A stretch of 63,954 bases of DNA, filler included, from Stramenopiles sp. TOSAG23-2 (Eukaryota): the NCBI GenBank assembly GCA_900128395.1. It is 3 parts of 3 records of this genome, joined end to end, with 100 filler letters (N's around TTAATTAATTAA, not from the genome) between each part and the next. Parts side by side here need not be neighbours in the genome. Positions count along the whole stretch, not along the records: positions 21,891 to 43,566 come from LT649530.1; 2 more parts are not named here. One strand, given 5' to 3'. The translations under genes and the position numbers were made by a program. Shown here one piece after another: positions 12,178 to 61,274 of the stretch (the first letter of the stretch is position 1; the number at the start of each line of letters is the position of its first letter). The notes under the pieces are model-generated. The model was not told the DNA's origin. It was given only the letters and a program-made list of their open reading frames with translations, and did not search any database.

Positions 12178-14469
12178 TTACAACTTATCCAACAACTCAT
12201 CATCGACATGATTGACTAATGTTACTTTTAATTTTGGATTTTGTTCCATGGCACGTTTAATAGCAAATTCTGCATTATCATTTCGTGCCCAAGCACGTCT
12301 CGATACACCATTGTTGACATCCCAGAATAACATCGATGCGGCACGTTGACCAGCTTCTTCGGAACCATCTAATACTAATCCAAATCCACCATTCATCACT
12401 TCACCCCAACCAACACCACCACCATTATGAATTGCTACCCATGTTGCACCACGGAATGAATCGCCAATCACATTTTGTACGGCCATATCTGCAGTGAAAC
12501 TACTACCATCACCGATATTTGATGTTTCACGAAATGGACTATCCGTACCACTAACATCATGATGATCACGACTGATAACAACTGGACCTTTTAATTCACC
12601 TTCACCAATTGCGTCATTAAATGCCTTTGCAATCAATGCACGTCCTTCCCCATCTGCATATAATATTCTAGCTTGTGAACCAACAACTAATTTATTTTCC
12701 TCTGCTTGTTGTATCCATTTAATATTATCATCAAGTTGAGCAACAACACGTGGTGGTACACGTGCGCGTATCTCTTTCATTACTTTCTCTGCAATTTTAT
12801 CCGTCATCGTTAAATCAGATGCTAATCCACTTGTACATACCCATCGAAATGGTCCAAATCCTAATGAGAAAATATCACCCATAATATCTTGAACATAACT
12901 TGGATAACGAAATGTTTTCCCATCATTTTCACCTGGTAAACCAACATCTGCACCAGCACGACTTGCTTCTAATAAAAATGAATTGCCATAATCCCAAAAT
13001 TTCATACCCCTTGCAGTTAATGTATTAATAGCAGCAACATGTCGACATAATGATTCTTGTACTAATTTTTTAAACCGTGGTGGATCTGCTACCATTACAC
13101 GTCTAGCCTCGTCAAATGATATTTGTACTGGATAATATCCACCATTATAAGGATTATGTAATGAAGTTTGATCTGAACCTAATTCTACTAGTAATTCTTT
13201 TTCTTCCGCTAATCGTTCCCATAAATCAACTACGTTACCTAAAAATCCAATTGATGTAACGCGTTTTTCTTCTCTTGCATTGACAATACGTTCAATACAA
13301 TCATCTAAACTTTTGGATACTTCTTTGACCCATCCTTGTTCATATCGTTTCATTAATGCATTTTCATCCACTTCAGCAATTACACCAATTGATCCAGCAA
13401 TCATTGCCGCTTTTGCTTGTGCACCAGACATACCACCTAAACCAGCAGTTACAAATACTTTACCAGATAAATCGCCACTACCTAAATATTTACGCCCTGC
13501 ATTTAATACCGTCTGTGTATGTATTTGTATTAATGTGTTTGGATTTTATATCGTGTTGTATAATATTTTCTAAGTGTTAGTATATATATACATACAATGA
13601 GAATTTTATGTTGAAATTTATGTAAAGAGCTATATATAATTATGGATGATGGATAAGAGATACATTTGTGTATATAGGTATATATATATAGTGTGAGTTG
13701 TCTGTGATAACGTCTATTTACATACAATGGTTGTTCCATGAACAATACCTTGTGGTCCAATGTAACAATAACTTCCAGCTGTCATTTGTCCATACATACT
13801 ATTGCCTCTTGCATACATTAATTGTAAATTTTCTTGTGAACTATAATTTGGTATGACCATTCCATTTGTAATAACAACACGTGGTGCATTTGTATTTGAT
13901 GGAAATAATCCCATTGGATGTCCACTATACATTGTTAATGTTTGTTCTTCCGTCATTTCACTTAAATACCTCATAGTTAAATGATATTGTGCCCAATTTT
14001 GAAATACACTACCATTACCACCGTAAGTAATCAATTCATGTGGAAATTGTGCTACGGATGGATCTAAATTATTTTGTATCATCAACATAATTGAAGCAGC
14101 TTGACGTGAACGTGCTGGATATTGTTCAATTGGATATGCTCTCATATCATAATGTGTTGGTCGAAAACGATACATGAAAATATGACCATACGTACGTAAT
14201 TCTTCTGCAAACTCTGGTGCCAATGTGGAATGTAATTCAGCTGGAAAATAACGTAATGCATTACGTATAGCTAATTTAAAATCTGTATCCGATAATTTCA
14301 CTTGAAAGACAGGTGCATGTGGTACACTTGCATCACGTGTTGGTTGTGGTGGTGGTAATGGATTTAACGGGATACCATTTGCTAGTGTGGATAATGGATT
14401 GTTTAACGTGATGGTACCGGAGTTGGTATTGGTATTTGTTGTTGTCTCTGTTGATGTCATTGTTGCCAT
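12178..14469 (-). CDS. UROC1: Urocanate hydratase, long eukaryote (UROC1) type, ~692 aa; intron 13513-13725
   Basis: Motifs ELITYGGNG, YGQMTAGSYCYIGPQGIVHGT, GLGGMSGAQ, SDQTSLHNP, RDHHDVSGTDSPFRET and HNGGGVGWG. The GTATGT...CAG intron restores HGTTI|TVLNAGR. Confidence 0.95.
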
Positions 14470-15546
14470 GTTTCTACTTTTTGTATGGGGCGTTTGATTT
14501 ATCTTGTATATTTATGTTTCTTTATACGAAAAAGCAAAACACTAAAACTCGTATTATTACAATTGTTTCAAAATATGTTATTAATTTCTACAAAAAAAAA
14601 ATGAAGAAATTTTAAAATTTAAAATTTAATAAAAAAAAAATATTGTAAAACTTTTCTTTTCTCTGTCCCTAAAATTGAAAATTCGTATAAAATAATAGTA
14701 TTAGAAACACTTATAATGATATATATAGATATATATATATATATATATATGATATTTGATCAATATATGATATATATATCTTATACGTACACACACAAAC
14801 AGAGTTTCTCGGAACCTTCTATATATAAAATAATCAAATTTTTGTTGGAATCGATCTTCAACTTAGATAAATATCCGATTTAATTATTGTAATATGAGGT
14901 AGTTATTGACATTATTATACGACATAAATTATTATTTTACAATAATAGTTTCTATACCTATTAATACCAATAATCCATAATAGTATATTTCCATAATAGT
15001 CTTAATGGTATTATACTCAATCTGATTGATTTAACCCGTGTTATCATTGATATTTTAACGGGAAGATTTTTTGGTTAAGGTACATGTTGAATATTTTAAT
15101 ATTCAAATATTGATAATATACAAATGGTATGGTAATATACGATTATTACATTTATTCCTTAAGTAAAAATAGTCCAGGTTTGAAGAGATAAGCTATATAT
15201 CTAGAAGTAATACACATTAAAGGCGTATATATACATATAGTGAGTGATCATTGATATATATATATATATATATAATCATTTATCTTGTGTTTTAGTAAGT
15301 ATCCATACAGTATTGAACAACCGGAAAAGTTATAATATAGTTTGAACGAACGGGAAAAATAATAATAATAATTAATAATTGTAAATTATTTTAAATTTTG
15401 AATATTTTAATAATCTTGCAGTTTTTTTTGTTTTTTTTCTCAATTTGAAGATAAACATTTATATATAGCATACACGTATTATTTTGGATAATACAATATA
15501 TCAAACCAAAACAAGCCAAAGCAAACAACAAATAAACACATTCAAA

Positions 15547-16827
15547 ATGCCACATCCAACATTATTTATTCATAATATCTCATCGTTATATACATTGAAT
15601 CCAAAATATATCACAGGAACAAATCCACTTGGATTATTAAAAAATACATCTATTGGTTTTGTAAATGATAAAATATCATTTATTGGTGATGCAACCTCAT
15701 CTGAAGCAATTGAAGGTAAAAATGTTGCTGCTATTGTTATTGATGGAACTGGGTTTATTGGTTTGCCAGGTCTTGTAGATTGCCATACACATACAGTATG
15801 GGCAGGTTCAAGAGCAGATGAGTTTGCAAGACGTTTAGCTGGTGAAAAATATGCAGATATAGCAAAAGCTGGTGGTGGTATTTTATCCACTGTTGAACAT
15901 ACACGAAATGCAACATTAAATGAATTAGTAACAAATGCAAAAAGTCGTATACAAAACATGGTACGTAAAGGTGTTACAACGGTTGAAATTAAATCGGGAT
16001 ATGGTTTATCACCTGATGCAGAAGCAAAAATGTTACGTGCCGCAAAAGAATGCAATGATACAGCACGTATTGTGACTACGTTTCTTGGTGCACATGCATT
16101 ACCAAAAGAATTTCGTGATAATCGTAAAGGATATGTACAACAAGTGATTAATGATCAATTACCTATAATACAAAAATATGAATTAGCTGATAATATCGAT
16201 GTATTTTGCGATTCTATTGGATTTACATTGGAAGAAGCAAAGGATATATTAACTGCTGGGCAACGTGCCGGTATGAAAGTCAAAGCACATGCTGAACAAA
16301 TACAACATACTGGTTGTACCTCATTAGTATCTGAATTAAATGGTATTAGTGCGGATCATTTAGAACGTGTTAAATTAGAGGATGTAAAAAATATGGCAGC
16401 TAAAAATGTTGTTGCTGTATGTTTACCAGGTGCACAAATGTATTTACATGATACGAGTCCGCCGGTTCAATTATTCCGTGAAAACAATGTAAAAATGGCA
16501 GTTGCAACGGATTTGAATCCAGGTAGCAGTCCTGTACATGATTTATTCACCTCTGCAACATTAGCATGTGTATTACAAAGCATGACGATTGTAGAAGCAG
16601 TGGAAGGTATTACAAAAAATGCTGGACTTGCATTAGGACGTAATGATTTAGGATGGCTTGGTATTGATGGTGCAAGTGTAGGTGATATGATCTTATGCAA
16701 AGCTATGGAAGGTGATCCACCCACCGTTGAAAGTTTAATACAAAATATTGGTGGGCATGATTTAGTCACTACGATACGGGATGGTGAAGTGATTTATAAT
16801 AATATGCGTTATGGTAAGACAAGTTGA
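15547..16827 (+). CDS. hutI: Imidazolonepropionase (amidohydrolase), bacterial-type
   Basis: Motifs DCHTH, GGGILSTV, TTVEIKSGYGL, FLGAHA, HAEQ, SADHLE and ATDLNPGSSP. Intronless, ATG at 15547. Confidence 0.93.
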   Translation: MPHPTLFIHNISSLYTLNPKYITGTNPLGLLKNTSIGFVNDKISFIGDATSSEAIEGKNVAAIVIDGTGFIGLPGLVDCHTHTVWAGSRADEFARRLAGEKYADIAKAGGGILSTVEHTRNATLNELVTNAKSRIQNMVRKGVTTVEIKSGYGLSPDAEAKMLRAAKECNDTARIVTTFLGAHALPKEFRDNRKGYVQQVINDQLPIIQKYELADNIDVFCDSIGFTLEEAKDILTAGQRAGMKVKAHAEQIQHTGCTSLVSELNGISADHLERVKLEDVKNMAAKNVVAVCLPGAQMYLHDTSPPVQLFRENNVKMAVATDLNPGSSPVHDLFTSATLACVLQSMTIVEAVEGITKNAGLALGRNDLGWLGIDGASVGDMILCKAMEGDPPTVESLIQNIGGHDLVTTIRDGEVIYNNMRYGKTS

Positions 16828-33012: not shown

Positions 33013-34083
33013 TTAAAGATCTTTTACAACACCACAAATTTCTTTGTTCTCTCCACATGCTGCTTTATACAATGACTTTAATGCAACAACAGCTTTTGAT
33101 GATTTATTTCTCTTCTCCAATGTATCAATCATAAGTTTTAAAGTTTGATCAACCCATAGACAATTTACTAAATATAATATTTTACATATATTGACATATT
33201 CCATAAATATCAATTCCTTCATTGTATTATTGCCATTATCATTTTCATTACTACATACAAGATTTGAATTGACAATTACACCCCTACAAACATTTGTTAA
33301 GATATTTTCTTTATGAGAATTTAAACACGGCCATGAGTATTCAATAATTGCTTTAAATGATTTTATTACTGCTAATTTTAATGGCAATGGCTCTTTTATT
33401 TCAACCCCTGACAATGGTCCTTCACTTATTAAACCATACAACCATGGAAACAAAATGGATGCATACTTTATAATATGAATTTCACTGGAACGTATAAACA
33501 ACTCTAATTTACTAGCATAGATATAACGAACTTCTCTGACCGAGTGGATCGAATAATCGATCAATCGATCTAAAAAGCGAAAGTAATTTGGTCGTAAGGT
33601 CAATTTATTTTCTAGTTTCTCTGAAGCTTTAAAGGATACATCTAATGCTAATTTTAATAATTTCGGATTTCGTGTGGTTAATACTTTTAATAAAAATTCA
33701 TACATTGGTATATGGTACCATCTTAATTCTGTGTCTAGATTTTCATCGAGCACCTCTTGAAGTATTAACAGTGATAAGTATTGGACATCGTCATTAAACG
33801 AATCTATTCCTGGGAAACATGTATATGATAAAATCAATCCTAAAGCATCGCCTGTAGATATTTTTAGTTCTTTTCTTTTTTCATTAAATTCTTTCAAAAA
33901 TATTTTTGCATCATCAATCTTCAATATAACCTGATCAAATTGAGTTGTATCTGGAATTCTTTCCTTTTTGAATATACTCTTTATATATACATCATTTAAT
34001 AAAGTCGTCATTTCTTTAATTATATCGAAATGTATTTCATTTGTGTTTAGTTTTAGTATATTCAATACAACAGGTATGTACAA
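33013..34083 (-). CDS. ARM/HEAT-repeat protein, possibly TTI2-like
   Basis: Leu-rich helical ORF. FKAIIEYSWPCL resembles the TTI2 C-terminal WP motif as I recall it (unverified). Confidence 0.5.
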   Translation of the reverse strand: MYIPVVLNILKLNTNEIHFDIIKEMTTLLNDVYIKSIFKKERIPDTTQFDQVILKIDDAKIFLKEFNEKRKELKISTGDALGLILSYTCFPGIDSFNDDVQYLSLLILQEVLDENLDTELRWYHIPMYEFLLKVLTTRNPKLLKLALDVSFKASEKLENKLTLRPNYFRFLDRLIDYSIHSVREVRYIYASKLELFIRSSEIHIIKYASILFPWLYGLISEGPLSGVEIKEPLPLKLAVIKSFKAIIEYSWPCLNSHKENILTNVCRGVIVNSNLVCSNENDNGNNTMKELIFMEYVNICKILYLVNCLWVDQTLKLMIDTLEKRNKSSKAVVALKSLYKAACGENKEICGVVKDL

Positions 34084-34277: not shown

Positions 34278-36488
34278 TTAAACTTTGTTATCATCAATGC
34301 TACATAATCCATCAGCATCACAAAATGCATCTGGGCCATGAGTAAGTTGATCCGTTGCATCGTAATTTAACGATGATTGAAAATCAACATCTTTTAATTT
34401 TGAGACTAATTTATTATATGTCTCTTCTTTTATTTCTTCATAAGGCATTTGAGCATATGCACCTAATGGTACACGTGGCAAAAAACTAATGCCTTTCAAT
34501 TGGTATTGAAAAACATCTAATGCTCTTGGCAAGTCCTTTCCTTCCGTTTCAGGATCAAAGGTAATAGTACAACTCACTTGATTATCAGCCCAATAACGTT
34601 GCAAAAATGCTGCCAAGGATAATTGTTCCCACATTGTTACATCAGATACAGTACGAACACCGTCACCAGCATCTACTGGTATTTCAACTACAACGGTGTC
34701 ATTTGGGCTATCAACTGCTGGCTCAATATTATACCCAGCTTCTTCTAATGGTTTTAACAATGGAGAATCATGACCAATACGTATTCGTCTTAAATAAAAC
34801 CTAGATTCCGGAAAATGAACTCCTGGTGTTGCCCCAGCCAACAACGAAACAGTTCCACTTGGTTTGATAGAAGTACATTTGATTGATTCAGGTACATCCA
34901 TCCATTTTGACAATTCTTTATCTACACCACGAACTGTTTCATAACCTTTATCACACCATGTCTTCAATTCATCTAGACCATTCCTTGCAACAAATTGAGC
35001 TATTCCACTCATGCTACAACCAATCCTTCTGTTTCTAGACATGACTTCGTTTGTACGCTCCCAATGCGTTTCCCCTAAAGTAACAACTTTCGCATACAAA
35101 TATGCATATTTTAACGTCTCCATGTATTCATCTATATTTTCATGACGTGCTGGAAATGTTTCAACTAAGCAACACATTTCAAACGACTCTAAAGATTGTT
35201 CTAAACATGGGTTACCACCCATAACACGATGGTCCACATAATTTGGTGGATCCTTCATCCTGCCATAATCCCTCATATTTTCTAACCATGCGAATCCAGG
35301 TTCACCGTTTTTTACGACTCGTTTACATACGTTATCGTACTCCATTCCTAAATTAGCAAATATACTATTGTTACTTGTCCATCCATATTCCATTCGATGC
35401 GGATTAATTTCATAATCTTTTAAATCTATGTATTCCTCACTATCAGGTTCTCCAAATGCAATTTCTGCAGTACGACGTACATTTCCACTAACAACACATT
35501 TCCCAATATGATTCATTAAATCTACAATTGATGTGACTGTTAATTTCTGTCCGATCAATGGATTTAGTGTATTTTGCAAACGTTCATGTAATTCTGCAAG
35601 AACTTGATATCCAGAGCTTACACCACCAAAACCTTTAATTGGTGTGCCAGCAGGACGAAGTAAATCATATGAAAATTTAATTTGTTTTTGATTTGGTACA
35701 AAATATGATTGTAATAATAAACGTGTTGATTCAACCCATCCTTCCCTTGAATCTGGTACCTGAAATACTTCTGTATGTTCCTCATAATCTCCTTTCATCT
35801 TGCCAGGTTGATACACATCGATTTTACCAGCCGCATGCGTATCAAATCCGACACCAACACCTAACATACTTGCATCCATTAAGAATGTATAAGGCATCGT
35901 TGGATCATCTTCGATAGTAATTTGATCTCCAGTGCTGACAAAAGCACAATTATTCAGAGCAGCATATAAACCTCTTTCCTCCGTGATAGGCGAACCCATT
36001 GCCCACAAACCACGGCCAGGTGGCAAAAATTTCATCTCATATACCAGCTCATACATTCTTTCAGCAAGTTTTTCAGCTTCATCGATATCATAATCTAAAC
36101 CTTTTGCTAACATATATTTTTTTTGCATATTGAACGTCCCATTAATAACTCGTTCAACTGTTTGATACCATTCTTCCATTCGTCCATTTTCAAGCTCTCT
36201 AGCATATGTCCGACGATATACAAGTTCACCAAGCCCATTAAAACCAAATGGTGGTTTCCTATCCGCAAATTGATCGACGAATGCTGTACTTAATTTAAAC
36301 CTTTCAAAGTTTGCTGAATCCTTCATTTGGTGATGAAAGTTATTTATTGGTAAAGTCGAATAATAGTTTACAATTTTTTTACCATATTTATTACTAATTA
36401 AATGGTTATTCCATCTTTTATTTGTATCATTACGTCGTACAATTATTGTCCTTGACGACGATGCTATACGTCTAAATGAATTTATCAT
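34278..36488 (-). CDS. nrdJ: Class II (adenosylcobalamin-dependent) ribonucleoside-triphosphate reductase, monomeric RTPR type, with N-terminal extension
   Basis: Motifs GLGELVYRRTYAR, PPGRGLW, ALNNCAF, SGNVRRTAE, GGNPCLEQ (thiyl Cys), CCLVE, IKPSGTVSLLAG, DNQVSCT and C-terminal CDADGLC. Confidence 0.93.
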   Translation of the reverse strand: MINSFRRIASSSRTIIVRRNDTNKRWNNHLISNKYGKKIVNYYSTLPINNFHHQMKDSANFERFKLSTAFVDQFADRKPPFGFNGLGELVYRRTYARELENGRMEEWYQTVERVINGTFNMQKKYMLAKGLDYDIDEAEKLAERMYELVYEMKFLPPGRGLWAMGSPITEERGLYAALNNCAFVSTGDQITIEDDPTMPYTFLMDASMLGVGVGFDTHAAGKIDVYQPGKMKGDYEEHTEVFQVPDSREGWVESTRLLLQSYFVPNQKQIKFSYDLLRPAGTPIKGFGGVSSGYQVLAELHERLQNTLNPLIGQKLTVTSIVDLMNHIGKCVVSGNVRRTAEIAFGEPDSEEYIDLKDYEINPHRMEYGWTSNNSIFANLGMEYDNVCKRVVKNGEPGFAWLENMRDYGRMKDPPNYVDHRVMGGNPCLEQSLESFEMCCLVETFPARHENIDEYMETLKYAYLYAKVVTLGETHWERTNEVMSRNRRIGCSMSGIAQFVARNGLDELKTWCDKGYETVRGVDKELSKWMDVPESIKCTSIKPSGTVSLLAGATPGVHFPESRFYLRRIRIGHDSPLLKPLEEAGYNIEPAVDSPNDTVVVEIPVDAGDGVRTVSDVTMWEQLSLAAFLQRYWADNQVSCTITFDPETEGKDLPRALDVFQYQLKGISFLPRVPLGAYAQMPYEEIKEETYNKLVSKLKDVDFQSSLNYDATDQLTHGPDAFCDADGLCSIDDNKV

Positions 36489-36734
36489 TTTTTATTGTTC
36501 TTATCGATGAATTATTTAATACTATCTTTGTTTTGATTTTCTCACTTCGTTAATAATCTATATACGCGTTTATATTGCTTCTTGTAGAGTTCTTAGTTTT
36601 TCGATTGAATATATACTTTCCATTCTATATATATTATTCTATATATATATACGTATTATCATTAAGTATACACAACACCTAATCGAGACTTTATATTTTT
36701 GTAAGCACAACTCAAGTATATAACTAAAGATAAT

Positions 36735-37727
36735 ATGAAGAAATTTTTGACCATTCCAAAAGGGCGTCATTTATTATCATTAAAAGATTTCAACGCACCA
36801 GAAATATGTGAATTGTTACGTGTTGGACATGAAATCAAATCAAAACATGCTAATCGTTATGATGCAGCTGCTGTGGAAAACTTAGAGAGATATCACAAAC
36901 CATTGTCAGGAGAAAGTTTAGCTATGATATTTCAAAAGCGTAGCACGCGGACCAGGGTGTCTAGTGAAACTGGTTTTAATATGTTGGGTGGACATGCTTT
37001 GTTTTTAGGTAGCGATGATATACAACTTGGTGTAAATGAATCCATTTTGGATTCTGCAAGAGTCTTATCACGTTTTAATAGCATTATATTAGCACGTGTT
37101 TTTGGACACGATGATGTCGTTGAAATTGCAAATGAATCAAGTGTTCCAGTAATTAATGCATTATCTGATAAATACCACCCATTGCAAATATTGGCGGACT
37201 TAATGACACTCCAAGAGAATATGGGAAATGATTTATCTGGCATGAAAGTTGCATGGGTCGGTGATGGGAATAATATTTTGCACTCCTTAATGGTAGCTTT
37301 ACCAAAATTAGGTATTGACTTGGCAATTGCAACACCTAATGGTTATGAACCAGATGATGATGTTATGGCAATAGCAAAGCAAGACGCTGCAACACATGGT
37401 ACATTTTTAGAACATACGACAAATCCACTTGACGCTGTTGCAAGAAGTGACGTAGTTGTCACAGATACATGGGTGTCAATGGGACAAGAGGATGAAGCAG
37501 CAAGACGATTGAAAGATTTTGAAGGATATCAAGTCACTAAAAAAATGATGGAGAAGGCCAACCCAGATTGGCGATTCTTGCATTGCTTGCCACGAAAACC
37601 ATATGAGGTTGATGATGATGTCTTTTATGATGATAAAAGGTCATTGGTATGGGATGAAGCTGAAAATAGGATGTGGAGTGTCATGGCAGTGTTTATTACC
37701 CAATTACGTGGATCAAATACAGTATGA
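36735..37727 (+). CDS. OTC: Ornithine carbamoyltransferase
   Basis: Motifs KRSTRT, HPLQ, GDGNN, DTWVSMG, FLHCLP and EAENR. Confidence 0.95.
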   Translation: MKKFLTIPKGRHLLSLKDFNAPEICELLRVGHEIKSKHANRYDAAAVENLERYHKPLSGESLAMIFQKRSTRTRVSSETGFNMLGGHALFLGSDDIQLGVNESILDSARVLSRFNSIILARVFGHDDVVEIANESSVPVINALSDKYHPLQILADLMTLQENMGNDLSGMKVAWVGDGNNILHSLMVALPKLGIDLAIATPNGYEPDDDVMAIAKQDAATHGTFLEHTTNPLDAVARSDVVVTDTWVSMGQEDEAARRLKDFEGYQVTKKMMEKANPDWRFLHCLPRKPYEVDDDVFYDDKRSLVWDEAENRMWSVMAVFITQLRGSNTV

Positions 37728-37918: not shown

Positions 37919-40900
37919 TCACGTGAACTCCTCCATTAAGTTAGTACTTGCAACTACTCTCCTATGTTGTGCTTCCTGATGATTTCGAACCAAAGCTTCT
38001 TTCTCTTTCTTCATTTTTTCAAGCAAAACATTACATTTATTCTTTTCAATTTTAATTAATTGTTCTGTAGTCTTATAGACTTTTTCCAATTGCTTTTTAT
38101 GATGCTTACGTGATTTTGCTAGTTGATCATGTAGACTTTGAACTTTCTTATCTGGATCTGTTTGAACTTCTGCAGCAGCTGTACTACTTTTCTTACCATT
38201 TCCTGGTTTATTACCGAACATTGATTTACGTTGATACATAGCAATTGCAGTAGCAGTAATGGATGCCAATGGTTGCAAAGATTCAATATCACTTGTCTTA
38301 AACTCAGCAGTATGATTTATGCCATATATGACACCGACTGTTTTACCATCTTCCATATTAACACATGGAACACAAATTAAATTGTTCGTTTGACATGATG
38401 ATCTTACATCTAAAAAATTATTGAAGTTTTTATGCGTTTGGGGAGCATTTGTAATAATTGGTTGTCCATCGGAAAGAACAATGCCAGGAATTCCTTGGCC
38501 TAAGCCGATACGATGCGGATGAAGCTCATCTTGCACATAATTATACGATACCAACTGTTTTTTAATTTGATCAAAAACAAATATGTAGACCTTCTCACAC
38601 GATAAAATTTGACACGCCTGCTGACTCAATTTTTTATGCGGAACATCGATACTGCTCATTAAAGCACATGTTGCGCCAACTAGTAAGCTTGTATTCTTTC
38701 GTGATTTTTTAACCTCGTTCATATTTCCTGCCATTGTTTTTTCCAAGTTTTCTTTCATGCGTTTATTTGTCACTTTTCCGACACTAATTGCATCAGTCAT
38801 TTTCTTAACTCTTTTAATATGTATTAACGCAGCGCTTATACATGCTGCTAAATTTGAAGCTAGTATTTCATCAGTATCGGTAAAACCATTGCTATCATCA
38901 TATTTGTCTTCATCTGAACCATACTCTACATTGCGCTTATTAATTAAATATAGCACCCCAGAAGGGTTACCACGAGAATCTTTAAATGGCACAGCTAATC
39001 CGTTTCTTGCTGCACAAGAAATTGCGCGGTCGTATTTATTTTGATATCGTCGATCTGATGCTGTATTTTTTATATTAATTATTAGACCTTTCTTCACTGA
39101 CGACCCAATACAACCAACACCAAATGGAATTTTATCTCTAGCCCTGCCATCGACCGAGCATATAATTTCCTCTAGAAATCTATCATTTGCAGGATCAATT
39201 GAAAATAGCACCATTTCATCCACTGGCAAAAACTTGTGTATTGATAGTAAGCGATCACGGATATTACTAACAGCTTTCGATCCAATGATCAATAGACACA
39301 ATGACATACACTCGTTTAATTTTTCCACGTTTCTCTTTGTATCTTTAATATTAATTAATAACGAATTTGTCTTTACCTCGTTGTTGTTATTTGCATTTAA
39401 TAACTTTTCATGTGCAACAATATTGTCCGTCAATGATCGATCTAATTTTAAAACTGTTTTGTACATTAAAATTCGCAACAATACTAAGCTAACAATATCA
39501 GACACATGTTTCAAAATATCTATATCATCCAACGAAAACCCTGTACCTTGTGATTCATGTACTGCTTGCTTATTTTTAAATAAAGCTATGACCCCAAACA
39601 CTTTTGCTTTTTGGCCATCTCGTTTAGTAGAAGGACGAAAAAGTGGCATTCCTAGAAATGTTACCGTTTTACGCTGTTGGATGTAATCATTTGAAGTGCT
39701 AAAGCGCGAATCATCTGAAACATCATCAATGCATAAAGGTTGTTCGGTGCTAAAAATATGTTGGTACAAAGTTGGCTGTTCCATGGGTATTTCTACATCT
39801 TCTTCTTCGTCGGCTAGTTTCTTCTTCTTTTTTTTACTGCTAGATTGGTTTTTTCTATTATTGCTATCAATTGCATCTTTTATCCACCACATATCTATAG
39901 ATGACGAGTGGAAAAATTTTTCACAAAATGATTGCACACAGCGTCTCAAACCTTCTACATTTATTTGCTTAAAGAATATTTCTGTAGATTTTAAAAGGGC
40001 CGCTTTTAAACGAGTTACGTTGCTCAATAAATTCGTCTGTAAATTGTACGACTTGTCAATCTTTTTGGTCAGCGAATCACGTTCTGCTCTACATTCATTT
40101 AAATCAACCTTTAATTGAGTTATAACACCAGCCTGTACCGCCATAAAATAATTAAAGTTAAACGCGGCTTCCAATGCTTCTGAAAAATGTTTAGCATGTT
40201 CTATATCTAATTCAGTAAACCTCCTACTGTCACCCTCTTTCTCGTCAATGTCATTTTCCTCCTCCTCCTCAGTGTTTCTTTTTTCCCTTGTTAATTTTTC
40301 ATCAGCTTCTTGAACAAAAAGGACAATGCCTTCATGGTTCTCCATGAAGTTGACATCCCCTTCAGGGTTCAATTTCATGGCAAGAACATATTTTATAGAA
40401 CCAACGTATTGAGAACCAATTGCTTGCTCCAACTCAACAATATTATACCCATCAGCTTCCACTTCTCCAAATATATGTATAGTTTCTTCATGATTTTGTA
40501 AAATATCAATAAGTTTCACAGGTGGAGACACATAACAGGGTTCGCCACTGTCACTGCCTCTAACAGGATAAAAGGTATACTTTCTTTCTTCTTTTTGCCT
40601 AATTAAAATGAACGCACACGAGCATGAAATAACGTGATGAAACATGCGCTGAAAGATCATATGAACGCTTATATGCGTTGTTCTCAACTTTGTAGCTTCA
40701 ACAACTTTCCAGAGAAACGATTGGAGTTCAATTTTAATTTTTAACCTATGTTGTTCTTTTTCAAATAATTCCAAAGCTACTTCATTTACATGGTGCAACT
40801 CTTTTATTGCCAAATCGCTTTCGTTTTTAAATTCACTCAGTACATCTTCACTTTGATTCTTTAACTTTTCCACAGCAATTTCATGTTCATGTATGATTTC

Positions 40901-43511
40901 TTTTATTTTGCTCACTTTGTTATCTCTATCGTCCGTGATACTCTTCAGTTTTAACATCCTCATCTCCCTTTCTAGACGTACGACAATGATATTTTCTAGC
41001 TCTGGAATAATAAATTGTATGAATTTTTCATCATCCTTGCTTAAAGGAGCATCTGTATTAGTGAAAAATTGCATGACTCCAATGCATACAGGATATTTAA
41101 GAGACGGAAATAGTTCCTTTAATTCAGTCATTGATGACATTATTGGAAAGCAGCGAAGACAAAATATGTCTGACAAAGAAGGAGTAGGAGCGGGCATATC
41201 ACACTTCGAAAATGAACTGAAGTGCATCGAGGACGATTCACTAGAATCGACTTGTTTTCCTGTCTGGATAGCTTTGCCAACCAAACCTTCTCCAGGTTTA
41301 CACGAGCGATCAACTGCAGTGTATTCAATGATGTTTTGCTTTTCCATTTTACATACATAGAAACGAATTGTTTTAGCACCAGTTATTTTGCAAATCATAT
41401 TGCATAAAATAGCGGACAAACGATTAAATGGAATTGGCAAACATAAGCGCAAGGCTTCTTTCAAAACTTCTTGTGTCGCCCGAGCAGCTTTCGTCTCGTT
41501 GACATATGTAGTACGTAGATTTGCCAATGCCGCGGATATCTCTTCTTCTTTTCTTTTATCCTCATTGCTTTGGTTGATATAATTCATCGTAGTTCCCAGT
41601 ATAGAAGTAAAATGATTGATAATTTTCATTAAAGCTTGTGAATAACGTTTTTGTTGTTTTTTTCTCGATGATTTCGAATCATCTGTCTCGCTGCCCTCAG
41701 TAGATTTTGCTGTACCCCTAATTTGTAATAGCGCTATCATTACATCTTTGACTATGATAGGTGCAACAATGATGCCGTCTTGTATCGATGTGAAAATAGG
41801 TTTCTTCGAAACCATTACTCGACTCATACTATCAGACATCCTATTTATTTGTCGTTCCTTCATAGTCGAAGGATCAACATTCCATACGGTGTCTTCATCT
41901 TTTACCAGAAAAATTTTGGTATTACATCGAGATGATTGAAACAAACTGCACATGGCTGTACTTGTAAATTCGTACAATTCACCAAAATTATTCGACTTGA
42001 TAATATTGTTGTATCCTTGGATAGCATTTTGCAACATGATAATGTCTTCCTGTAGCGATTTACCATTTACCGCATTCAGTTTCAGCTCATTATATTCCTC
42101 TGAGAAATTCATAATTTCAATCTTAGAAGCAATTACAGATGCAATTCGTAACAACGTATTTCTATCATCCGCAGTTAAAGTGTGACCACCACGCTTCCCA
42201 CCAACCCTTATAATGCCTAGAATTCTTCCCCGTGACGATACTAATGGTACTAAAAGCATTGATGCTATTTGATTATTACGGGAAATTCCATCTGGCAGTT
42301 CATACTCCAATGTTTTTGCAATATCTGAATCAGTAATTAACCTATCACTACCCTCTTTGTACGTATCTAATAATATGCCCGTAAGTTCAACTTTATTATG
42401 AAAAGATCCATCATTCCCTTTGTATGAAACAAAAATTGGATCAGTGGATATAAGTAGTAAGTCAGCAAAACAATTACCAATTAGTTTTTGAACTTCATTT
42501 TTAGTGCATGTATACATGTTTTCTTCATTTAAAGTTTTTGAAATCACACCCAAACTTCTGAGAGCTCGATCACTCGTCCTGAGTTTTGACATATGTGCCT
42601 CTTTTTTCGAAAGATTATTTTGCAGCTCTGTAATTTTCTCCTTACAGTCAGCTAAAGAACTCAAAGGACCTTCTAATAAAGTTATTTTTGAGCATATTTG
42701 CAATGCAAATCCATGTACAATTTGTTCATCTATTGATGAAAATGTAGCACCGAAACGCTGCTTGTACAAGCACAAAATGCCATATGGAAGCCTTTTGTTC
42801 AAATGCTCCACTGGAATATACAACAGTGAATTTGGCCCTGAGACATCATCATACCTATCTATTTCATACGAAAAATGTTTATGATCTTCCACGTTCCTAT
42901 TCAATCTAATGATTTCTTTTTCCCGAAATGCATGTGTAACGAGGCTTTTTTTATCCAAGCGAATTTTCAAATTGTTTGGGCCTTGTAAATACTCTTTTTC
43001 GTATTTAAAAAAGGTAACTTTATCAGCAGTACAGAAATTGTTTATTTTATATCTCAAAAATGAGCAAAGTGAATCCATCGTGGAACATTCCGAGAGCTCA
43101 TTGGAGTAATTCATCGAGGATACATTTTTTGCAGACGCATTTTTCAGATCGTTAGCCATTATTTCTACCCTCAATTTTTCTGTATTTAGCAATAATATAT
43201 GCTCCCAGCATAGTGATAAATGATACATTAACCTCTCCAACAACTTATCTTCTGCAGGTAGGAAATTTCTTCCAGAAATTGTACGTCTAAGAAGAATGCA
43301 ACCTGATGCAGCGACCTTGGTGGAGGATGATTGATACAGTAAAGGTTTGCAAAGCATTGGACAAGGGTCATCCCCAGCAATAAAACCGTCTATACCTTCG
43401 TCGTAAATATCAGATTGCTTTGCATTGCTTAAATTTAATGTCTGACTTGTCTCGATAACATATCCAACGACACCAATCCCTGCCACATGTCTTTTTTTTT
43501 GAACCTTTCCT
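37919..43511 (-). CDS. Very large multi-GAF-domain coiled-coil protein, 5'-partial
   Basis: Several GAF signatures (GIGVVGYV, LLVPLVSSRGRILGII, AVPFKDSRGNPSGVLYLINKR...FTDTDE, GQGIPG) separated by coiled coils. The predicted start lies in chimeric sequence. Confidence 0.85.
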
Positions 43512-43566
43512 AATGGTCTGATATAATTATATTGCATAATAAAACTAGTTCATTACGTAATAAATA

Positions 43567-59470: not shown

Positions 59471-60871
59471 TTACAACTCTAAATTCTGAAGAATATTAAT
59501 TTTTTTATTTTCAATTAATGTTTGTAAACCACTGATCAAATCAATTACAGAATTTGTTGAATATGGTACATTATATTCTTTAAAGGTTTGTTGCATAATG
59601 TCGCGGTAAAGATGGTGTTTACTATGATCAATGCCTGGAAATAAATGATGTGCTGTATGATCATTTAAAAAACCATACATGCATAACGATAAGTAATTCC
59701 CAGAAAAACTCCCATCTGATAAATGTAATGAATGATCGGATGTACTCATCACTTGATGCCTGCCAAAATCAGTACTTGCACCTGCTTGCCCTTCATGCCA
59801 TGCTGCTGTATCTCTTTGCTCCGTCCCATCTTGGCCACCTTGTTTCGCACTATGATGAACTGCTAATGCACCAGGGGCAAATCCTAATACGAAAGATGAA
59901 CATTGTATAGCAAATAATAAAAATCCTTTCATAATACCTTGGTGGTATATATAATGTAATAATTGTAATGTTGGTAAACTGTGTGCCCATTCATCTAGCT
60001 CAACATTAGCAATGCCATTTTTTTCAATTGCATTATTTAATAAATTAATTTTTGTCAATGCTGGTTGAAAAGCAAATGCCGCACTTAAACCATTCCATTG
60101 CCAAAATTTCTTCATTCCCTTTCGTGTTTCCATTTGTGTATCATCTGTAAAAACACCACCTGGTAAAAATGGAAATACATGTTCAATCGAAGTAGCTTCC
60201 CAATCTTGATGTAAGTTTGTATATTGATGATGTGATAAACAATGTGTTATTCTAGTCATTCGACTGGACCAATACGTTAAATCAACACCATATCTAAACC
60301 ATCCTAACGTTTTATCTGCTTGATGCATTGAATTATGCCCAACACCCCATGTACCAATTAATGCTAAGCCACTCAAAGCAGATAAGATATATGAACCAAA
60401 CATTGCCGCGCTTGAATGGACAATAAAAAATTGAAAAATAACAAGATAATTAATTAATTTCATTTTCCAATCAGGTGCAGTAGCTTCCATTGTAGTTTTT
60501 GCCTTTGTTTTCTCCAACAATGTTAATAATACTCTTTTCTTTAACATGTTGTAAAATTCATATGGATCGTATATAAATGTGCGAGATTGCTGTCCTATTT
60601 TTTTCTCCTTCATTTTCTCTTCAAGATGATCGTAATAATAAAATTGTACAAAATAATACTCTTTTCTTTAACATGTTGTAAAATTCATATGGATCGTATA
60701 TAAATGTGCGAGATTGCTGTCCTATTTTTTTCTCCTTCATTTTCTCTTCAAGATGTTTTGGAATTTGCAATGCTTTTTTACGTGCAATACCATTTTCTTT
60801 TTTTAATGCAGTATCATTATTTACAACTAATCCACCACTGAGTGTCTCCTCTGCTGTTGGTGTTTGGTCAT

Positions 60872-60904
<33 letters not shown>

Positions 60905-61274
60905 TGTTTGTCTCAAAAACCATTAACTCCTCATCTGTACAATCTTGTACGTAAAAATTTGATAGAACGTTATCTACACGTTTCATGTCCAAATGATGCG
61001 ATTCATAAGCTTCTGTACAATCATGACCTTGTGTAAATTCTATAAATTGTTTTCCTCCCGGATGAAACTTTGCAAACTCTTTTAAATCATATAATTTATT
61101 CTTTATTCTCCATAAATGTTGATATTTAGGTTTCGTATCAGCTGTTTTTTTCGACTTCAACCAATCTATTGCATTAGCACCTGCACGTTTACCTGGAAGT
61201 GGCTGCCGGTTGCGATTTAATGGCGGGACAATTGGATAGTTACGATTTGGAAATATTTGATATTGTCTCGACAT
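59471..61274 (-). CDS. Cytochrome b5-fused desaturase-like protein (Cyt-b5-related type), ~558 aa after removing 60525-60651
   Basis: HPGG heme motif and His boxes HNSMH, HCLSHH and HTAHH. A 127-bp duplication plus filler splits the ORF. Confidence 0.85.

Follow-up and report, generated by a model that had tools for sequence, protein, structure and literature searches.

In eukaryotes, the reduction of ribonucleotides is regarded as cytosolic and as the work of class I enzymes that depend on iron and oxygen. The founding monomeric class II ribonucleotide reductase (RNR) is the adenosylcobalamin-dependent ribonucleoside-triphosphate reductase (RTPR) of Lactobacillus leichmannii. In enzymes of this type an insertion domain takes the place of the dimer interface found in dimeric class II enzymes, and a single-chain reductase that uses NTPs can work with no second subunit and no nucleoside-diphosphate kinase. 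According to three papers (PMC3019208, PMC3605638, PMC8085122), monomeric class II RNRs also occur in eukaryotes: the hosts named there include Euglena gracilis, Dictyostelium spp., Phytophthora and other stramenopiles, Naegleria and Capsaspora, and also choanoflagellates, green algae and non-Dikarya (early-diverging) fungi. Crona et al. 2013 (PMC3605638) describe the class II enzyme of Dictyostelium as having an “enigmatic” role and report its failure to compensate for inhibited class I RNR. Here we analyzed a gene of this family on a 63,954-nucleotide stretch of DNA from Stramenopiles sp. TOSAG23-2 (GenBank assembly GCA_900128395.1); the whole stretch is called the window below. An earlier note on this DNA had read the product as a B12-dependent class II RNR with a mitochondrial-type presequence. 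The comparisons described here agree with the enzyme assignment and make mitochondrial import the best, and a probable, reading of the N-terminal leader.

The reductase gene is a single open frame that begins with the ATG at 36488-36486 and encodes a product of 736 amino acids (features are collected in Table 1). Because an in-frame TAA (36494-36492) lies two codons 5' of this ATG, it is the earliest possible start. Against NCBIfam, the whole protein scored 360.8 bits with TIGR02505 (RTPR), above the curated cut-off of 340.05 (E-value 1.3e-107). The L. leichmannii enzyme (PDB 1L1L; chain 1l1l_A) was the sole solved structure matched by sequence (E-value 5.4e-103). By homology we assign the protein to the monomeric adenosylcobalamin-dependent RTPRs of the L. 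leichmannii type, with cofactor dependence and NTP use predicted on the same basis. A dimeric class II identity was considered and rejected, since the dimeric model TIGR02504 (NrdJ/NrdZ) gave 60.9 bits, far under the 399.95 required.

Compared with 1L1L, the window protein is alike in its match to TIGR02505, in its active-site Cys, Asn and Glu residues and in the insertion domain PF21995, and three aligned stretches span its residues 62-713. It differs in having 60 extra N-terminal residues, in its place on a eukaryotic nuclear contig and in a C-terminal cysteine pair spaced C-x5-C. All catalytic cysteine motifs are present, as had been claimed: in an alignment of eukaryote-side and bacterial-type homologues, C181, N426/C428/E430, C439 and C723/C729 were invariant in 50 of 50 rows. 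We take C181 and C439 (C119 and C419 in L. leichmannii) to be the active-site redox pair and Cys428 (C408) to be the thiyl-radical cysteine in an Asn-x-Cys-x-Glu loop; C723 and C729 presumably form the thioredoxin-reducible shuttle pair.

The N-terminal extension was delimited by two alignments. Residue 3 of the 1L1L chain aligns with residue 62 of the window protein, and MAFFT alignment with the bacterial-type row P0086 gives 60 extra N-terminal residues, which bears out the approximately 60 that had been noted. Residues 1-55 comprise 6 Arg, 4 Lys, 6 Ser, 3 Thr, 9 Asn, 1 Asp and no Glu; the earlier description as Arg/Ser-rich with one acidic residue was right about the acidic residue and left out that the segment is equally rich in Asn. 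The first 30 residues contain 7 basic (Arg/Lys), 1 acidic and 6 Ser/Thr residues, and their longest hydrophobic run is 3 residues, so that there is no signal-peptide core. Import into the complex plastids of stramenopiles needs such a hydrophobic core, and a signal peptide, hence a bipartite plastid signal, is therefore unlikely here. Inspection of this protein by eye gave no match to the PTS1 or PTS2 peroxisomal signals.

The frequency of such a composition by chance was assessed with 30-residue windows with a net charge of +6 or more and no more than 1 acidic residue. These made up 431 of 13807 windows from long open frames of this AT-rich stretch and 56 of 11681 internal windows from 18 RTPR proteins. 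By itself the composition of the leader is unusual, not extreme, and could have arisen by chance. An ESM Atlas search with residues 1-60 was left unused, as its best score of 0.80 is attained by shuffled proteins one third of the time.

Stronger evidence came from comparison with homologues. Two homologue searches returned thousands of matches at about 60-70% identity, and the best 120 of each were analyzed together with full-length cluster members. After replacement of three truncated representatives and removal of P0002 (99% identical), the tree set held 212 distinct rows. Extensions were stripped before alignment and before tree building with FastTree. One branch (support 100, length 0.14) splits the 212 rows into 187 and 25. 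On the 187-row side, 180 rows have 0-5 extra residues, 5 have 6-14 and 2 have 17, and the two rows with 17 look like mis-called starts. On the 25-row side, 22 rows have 15-154 extra residues, 3 have 6-14 and none has 0-5. This smaller side includes the window protein and every row with a named eukaryotic source, counted as 10 rows (names represented: Aphanomyces stellatus, A. euteiches, Achlya, Saprolegnia, Umbelopsis, Basidiobolus, Rigifila, Filamoeba, Balamuthia, Thecamoeba and Luapelamoeba).

The window protein is 59-63% identical to the named eukaryotic RTPRs. It sits in a 6-row and then a 13-row group of extension-bearing rows beside the oomycetes, which are its nearest named relatives; a quick tree made with IQ-TREE likewise groups it with the named eukaryotic RTPRs, again with oomycetes nearest among them. 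The phylogeny that the earlier note had asked for thus places the protein with eukaryotic RTPRs, across a branch with support 100, and joins it to named monomeric class II RNRs from eukaryotes. The Euglena and Dictyostelium enzymes were not among the matches listed (best 120 per search).

The character of the extensions was scored with a criterion set after the first examples had been seen: an extension of at least 15 residues, a net charge of +3 or more and no more than 1 acidic residue among the first 30. Extensions of this kind were found in 15 of the 23 eukaryote-side rows that start with Met and in 4 of the 187 rows on the other side; among 77 full-length homologues of urocanase, a control enzyme with a similar spread of organisms, there were none. 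All four of the nearest orthologue clusters have full-length members with basic, acid-poor leaders, and so do the named rows Aphanomyces stellatus, Rigifila, Filamoeba, Thecamoeba and Basidiobolus ranarum. Whether orthologues lack a signal had been raised as a check on the presequence, and the result favors it: leaders are present in the four nearest clusters and in most eukaryote-side rows.

The extensions also evolve fast. Conservation of the extension falls far short of that of the core in 9 of 9 related pairs, and the frame is still open, with in-frame insertions and deletions only; identities of extension versus core are 73-79% versus 93-95% (cluster 2), 83% versus 99% (Balamuthia) and 64% versus 96% (Filamoeba-like rows). 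P0003 is an orthologue with 82% identity to the window protein, and still the two leaders cannot be aligned (a local score of 16, versus 19.4 as the mean of shuffles). Fast divergence within an open frame, together with a basic, acid-free N-terminus confined to eukaryotic hosts, is the signature expected of an organelle-targeting peptide. Transcriptome assemblies are the source of four rows with extensions (Rigifila, Filamoeba, Thecamoeba and Luapelamoeba). Of 20 extension-bearing rows, 16 lack a Met close to where the core begins, and in 8 of these 16, including the nearest orthologue P0003 and P0151, Met1 is the sole Met before the core, so that in those species an intact enzyme can be made solely with its leader.

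Two further observations on extensions were made. Behind a basic N-terminus, the oomycete-type rows P0008, P0010 and P0042 have a conserved, strongly acidic stretch that ends in an aromatic motif. This stretch is absent from the window protein, and its presence indicates that a targeting signal is not all that some of the extensions contain. Balamuthia mandrillaris (P0163, P0376, P0377) has two reductase loci or alleles, each with a Ser-rich extension of approximately 145 residues; its annotated “variant 2” shares this N-terminus, and the annotation therefore includes no isoform without a leader.

Taking composition and comparison together, we consider that the leader probably directs the reductase into mitochondria. 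We infer a course of events that runs from use of Met1 through import, cleavage, cofactor supply and reductant to a physiological role. The nuclear gene of this AT-rich, intron-poor protist would be translated from Met1 into a precursor with a matrix-targeting leader of approximately 60 residues, and the precursor would be imported via the presequence pathway and probably cleaved. In the matrix, the monomeric enzyme would convert NTPs to dNTPs with adenosylcobalamin as the radical generator, and a thioredoxin-type system would re-reduce the C-terminal cysteine pair. The result would be an organellar dNTP pathway independent of the cytosolic class I enzyme, and the same arrangement may hold in most of the eukaryotic branch of the RTPR family. 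In animal cells adenosylcobalamin is made in the mitochondrial matrix by the adenosyltransferase MMAB; synthesis of the cofactor in the matrix, combined with a single-chain reductase that acts on NTPs, makes a matrix enzyme an attractive reading.

If the reading is right, the reductase would resemble the animal methylmalonyl-CoA mutase/MMAB system in being a matrix-imported adenosylcobalamin enzyme, with an unrelated fold and reaction. Animal mitochondria draw their dNTPs from cytosolic class I RNR (including its p53R2 subunit), from import and from intramitochondrial salvage kinases. The end product for replication of mitochondrial DNA (mtDNA) is the same by either route; reduction is cytosolic in animals and would take place inside the organelle with an imported class II enzyme.

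The points that weigh against mitochondrial import concern the character of the leader, the behavior of the family elsewhere and the question of whether codons 1-54 are translated at all. The maximal hydrophobic moment of the leader is 0.73 (11 residues, 100 degrees), which is reached by 28% of composition-preserving shuffles, so that the leader is not seen to be amphiphilic beyond its composition, and in most orthologue leaders the moment likewise does not exceed that of such shuffles. Inspected by eye, the sequence has no clear R-2 or R-3 cleavage motif; it contains several Arg-x and Arg-x-x positions, none convincingly spaced from the core. Sixty residues is long for a presequence. Eight of the 23 eukaryote-side rows lack a leader as defined above: Achlya, Saprolegnia and Umbelopsis have just 9-13 extra residues, and Balamuthia, P0166 and P0169 have weakly charged N-termini. 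The other two are the A. euteiches model, which begins inside the acidic stretch that follows the basic leader in A. stellatus, and the B. meristosporus model, which begins inside a longer basic leader known from B. ranarum; judged by these relatives, both models are probably truncated. Finally, nuclear replication is the process served by the class II enzyme in Euglena, which means that not all of the family is mitochondrial.

The remaining points on this side turn on Met55, which as a second or as the sole start could give a short cytosolic form. As a second start it would lead to dual localization, in which Met1 yields the imported form and leaky scanning, or a shorter transcript, yields from Met55 a leaderless cytosolic form that feeds nuclear replication; we regard this as unlikely. 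Met55, which has A at -3, stands 6 residues ahead of the core and is kept in 11 of 11 full-length variants of the species cluster, where overall variation is too low to inform (2 of 54 columns variable in the leader versus 14 of 682 elsewhere). Among the 19 other rows with extensions, 3 (P0149, P0009 and P0021) also have a Met within 15 residues of the core start. Its absence from 16 of the 20 rows, the nearest orthologue P0003 among them, indicates that such a Met is not a conserved feature. Leaky scanning would also be intercepted by three out-of-frame ATGs between Met1 and Met55, two of which have A at -3 and G at +4.

A start-context matrix built from 19 ORF starts versus 207 internal ATGs, with leave-one-out scoring, gave -0.39 for Met1 and -1.6 for Met55; with starts at -0.7 +/- 3.1 and internal ATGs at -2.4 +/- 3.0, the matrix has no power. 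A cytosolic form would be needed if the organism had no class I RNR. The window, taken as 64 kb alone, contains no gene for class I reductase, MMAB, methylmalonyl-CoA mutase or thioredoxin reductase. Lundin et al. 2010 (PMC3019208) report class I RNR from all completely sequenced eukaryotes examined, which speaks against such a need.

If Met55 were the sole start, the 54 upstream codons would be accidentally open 5' leader or promoter DNA and the enzyme would be cytosolic. We rate this lower again, as rather improbable. The GC content of codons 1-54 (0.26) is near that of intergenic DNA (0.23-0.28) and below that of the mature part (0.37). Their codon-usage log-likelihood of 3.87 falls between the coding and the stop-free “non-coding” distributions: coding windows score 12.5 +/- 6.5, with 8.7% as low as 3.87 (9th percentile), and stop-free windows of unannotated DNA score 0.58 +/- 11, with 29% as high (71st percentile). 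The second half of the leader scores -0.27 and, being rich in Asn, Lys, Ile and Tyr, resembles translated AT-rich spacer. Stop-free windows of 55 codons make up at most 6% of the unannotated DNA in the window, an upper bound in which unannotated exons are included.

The public automated gene model from the same species, P0124 (33013-36326, minus strand), starts at Met55. This model is faulty: the reductase loses its last 8 residues, Cys729 included, to splicing and is fused to the downstream ORF 33013-34083, giving a 955-residue chimera. Moreover, the ATG of Met1 lies right at the head of the open stretch, two codons past the TAA, and the frame scores 3.87 versus -23 and -34 in the other two. 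Extensions of the same kind occur in the nearest orthologues that have no alternative Met, and 9 of 9 related pairs diverge without stops or frameshifts. For a coding leader, the comparative evidence from homologous sequences is much stronger than the direct tests in this gene, which are weak.

Least probable is that the extension is translated and has another job, be it as a signal for the nucleus or nucleolus, as a plastid transit peptide or as a disordered tail with a regulatory or partner-binding role. Residues 18-38 contain basic pairs and one small cluster of Lys, which amount by eye to just a loose bipartite-like pattern where a classical nuclear signal was looked for, and the acidic motif of the oomycete-type rows and the unexceptional hydrophobic moments point the same way, but the leaders of P0149, P0151, Rigifila, A. 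stellatus and P0183 are rich in Arg, Ala, Ser and Leu without Lys/Arg clusters, as is typical of presequences and not of nuclear signals, the longest hydrophobic runs (3-5 residues) leave no signal-peptide core of the sort that complex plastids of stramenopiles require, and the absent sequence conservation speaks against a specific binding motif.

Import into mitochondria thus remains the reading that we prefer. Of the “mitochondrial-type presequence” that had been proposed, the extension, its composition and the leaders of the orthologues stand; a start at Met55 is possible, and the location itself is read from composition and comparison. A wider claim, that the eukaryotic branch of the monomeric class II RNRs (stramenopiles, Amoebozoa, CRuMs and early-diverging fungi) is a mitochondrial family as a rule, is put forward more tentatively; on the distribution of leaders it may hold, at somewhat less than even chances.

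The other side of the tree has a bacterial character. Two of its loci (L001 and L006) are flanked by a DnaB-like helicase gene and by a gene for a TonB-dependent receptor with a Plug domain, and these neighbors indicate a bacterial context, whatever the assembly labels say. The assemblies with close copies of these RTPRs are labeled inconsistently, as Pelagibacter, Nanoarchaeota, Methanobacteriota and Flavobacteriales. A large marine bacterial RTPR clade (P0011-P0121 and P0167-P0254) consists of proteins of 657-693 amino acids that are about 60-70% identical to the eukaryotic enzymes. Its members are about 60-62% identical to the window protein, align with it over nearly the full length and have the same catalytic residues. 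They differ from it in gene neighborhood, which is bacterial, and in the N-terminus, with no extension in 180 of 187 rows. When the tree was rooted on more distant prokaryotic RTPRs, the marine bacterial clade nested among the eukaryote rows (SH-aLRT 93-99); an AU test does not reject monophyly of the eukaryotes (p 0.30). The nested position hints at a possible transfer of RTPR from a eukaryote to a bacterium. In a phage collection, the best match to a bacterial-type row was 47% identical, so that known phages do not explain the marine bacterial clade.

The accessible parts of Lundin 2010 (PMC3019208), Crona 2013 (PMC3605638) and Orlowska 2021 (PMC8085122) do not mention a presequence or an organellar location for a class II RNR, and a mitochondrial location is likewise unstated in the accessible parts of PMC11550330, PMC9450145, PMC7050145, PMC12699882 and PMC13632651. 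Full-text literature searches found no description of a class II RNR as mitochondrial or presequence-bearing, within a scope that left out most subscription papers and the proteome supplements; the supplementary protein lists of mitochondrial proteomes (Acanthamoeba, diplonemids, Andalucia) could bear on the claim. The enzyme family is already known in eukaryotes; its probable organellar address is undescribed in the literature searched. The failure of the Dictyostelium enzyme to compensate for class I fits a separate compartment, an explanation not proposed by Crona et al.

Table 1. Positions of the reductase gene, its domains and key residues, and the adjoining features (window coordinates unless residues are given)
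Feature	Position	Strand	Remarks
Monomeric class II (adenosylcobalamin-dependent) ribonucleoside-triphosphate reductase CDS, complete, intron-free	34278..36488	-	736 codons + TAA stop 34280-34278
N-terminal extension, codons 1-60, proposed mitochondrial presequence	36309..36488	-	no counterpart in prokaryotic homologues
Met55 codon, 6 residues ahead of the conserved core, possible alternative start for a leaderless form	36324..36326	-	A at -3, as for Met1
Conserved catalytic core, residues 61-736	34281..36308	-	Pfam, 1L1L alignment, 50-row alignment
RNR_Alpha domain	residues 66-166		126.8 bits, Pfam
RNR-II_ins_dom PF21995, monomer-type insertion domain	residues 237-302		39.5 bits vs cut-off 27, Pfam
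Ribonuc_red_lgC barrel domain in the reductase			Pfam match
Cys181 codon	35946..35948	-	aligns with C119 of L. leichmannii chain 1L1L
Codons 426-430, Asn-Pro-Cys-Leu-Glu	35199..35213	-	N426/C428/E430 align with N406/C408/E410 of 1L1L
Cys439 codon	35172..35174	-	aligns with C419 of 1L1L
C-terminal pair Cys723...Cys729 (C-x5-C)	34302..34322	-	outside the 1L1L alignment
AT-rich divergent intergenic spacer between reductase and ornithine carbamoyltransferase genes, 246 nt, GC 0.23	36489..36734	.	contains in-frame TAA 36494-36492
Ornithine carbamoyltransferase gene	36735..37727	+	TIGR00658, 368 bits

The contig that carries the reductase is eukaryotic and nuclear. Among the products of neighboring long ORFs are TPR, ankyrin, Kelch, DnaJ-thioredoxin and GAF-domain proteins, and these, together with a GT-AG intron in the urocanase gene, agree with the earlier view of the flanking genes as eukaryotic. 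The GC content of the window is 0.27-0.38 in 2-kb steps and approximately 0.31 overall, and that of the reductase gene is 0.35-0.37. A tRNA scan and an Rfam scan (gathering threshold) of the entire 64-kb window gave no match.

The conserved domain of the adjoining ornithine carbamoyltransferase (OTC) starts at residue 11, which leaves no room for a presequence, and this enzyme is presumably cytosolic here. Next to the OTC gene lies an intron-free ORF of 1872 amino acids (37919-43537, minus strand) with several GAF domains and long coiled-coil-like stretches; no family assignment besides GAF was found for it. The urocanase gene (hutU; 12178-14469, minus strand) has two exons separated by a canonical GT...AG intron of approximately 200 nt, and the best named matches of a urocanase fragment are oomycetes (Globisporangium, 70-71%), with corals scoring almost equally. 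As oomycetes are also nearest among the named rows in the reductase trees, we place the organism, with modest confidence, among protists affiliated with the stramenopiles. The imidazolonepropionase gene (hutI; 15484-16827, plus strand; TIGR01224, 377 bits versus a cut-off of 298) forms an adjacent, divergent pair with hutU, so that two consecutive steps of histidine degradation are clustered in a eukaryotic contig. A cytochrome-b5 ORF (60621-61274, minus strand) and a fatty-acid desaturase ORF (59471-60613, minus strand) lie 7 nt apart in different frames, and together (59471-61274) they probably make up a single front-end desaturase gene that contains either a short intron or a frameshift.

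The supply of dNTPs to mitochondria is a long-standing question, with medical weight through the mtDNA depletion syndromes. To our knowledge, B12 is made by prokaryotes only. If the reductase is imported as we propose, it would represent a distinct solution, in which B12 drives the de novo synthesis of dNTPs in the matrix. On the wider claim for the eukaryotic branch, many protists and fungi would have a second, oxygen-independent and B12-dependent dNTP pathway beside the site of adenosylcobalamin synthesis and apart from the cytosolic class I enzyme. This would explain why class I and class II enzymes coexist, why the class II enzyme of Dictyostelium does not rescue class I and why its role has seemed “enigmatic”, and it would give class II enzymes that coexist with class I a concrete and testable role. 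Maintenance of mtDNA in these organisms would then depend on bacterial B12, and the ecology of B12, as in marine heterotrophic flagellates that graze on bacteria, would be tied to the maintenance of an organelle genome.

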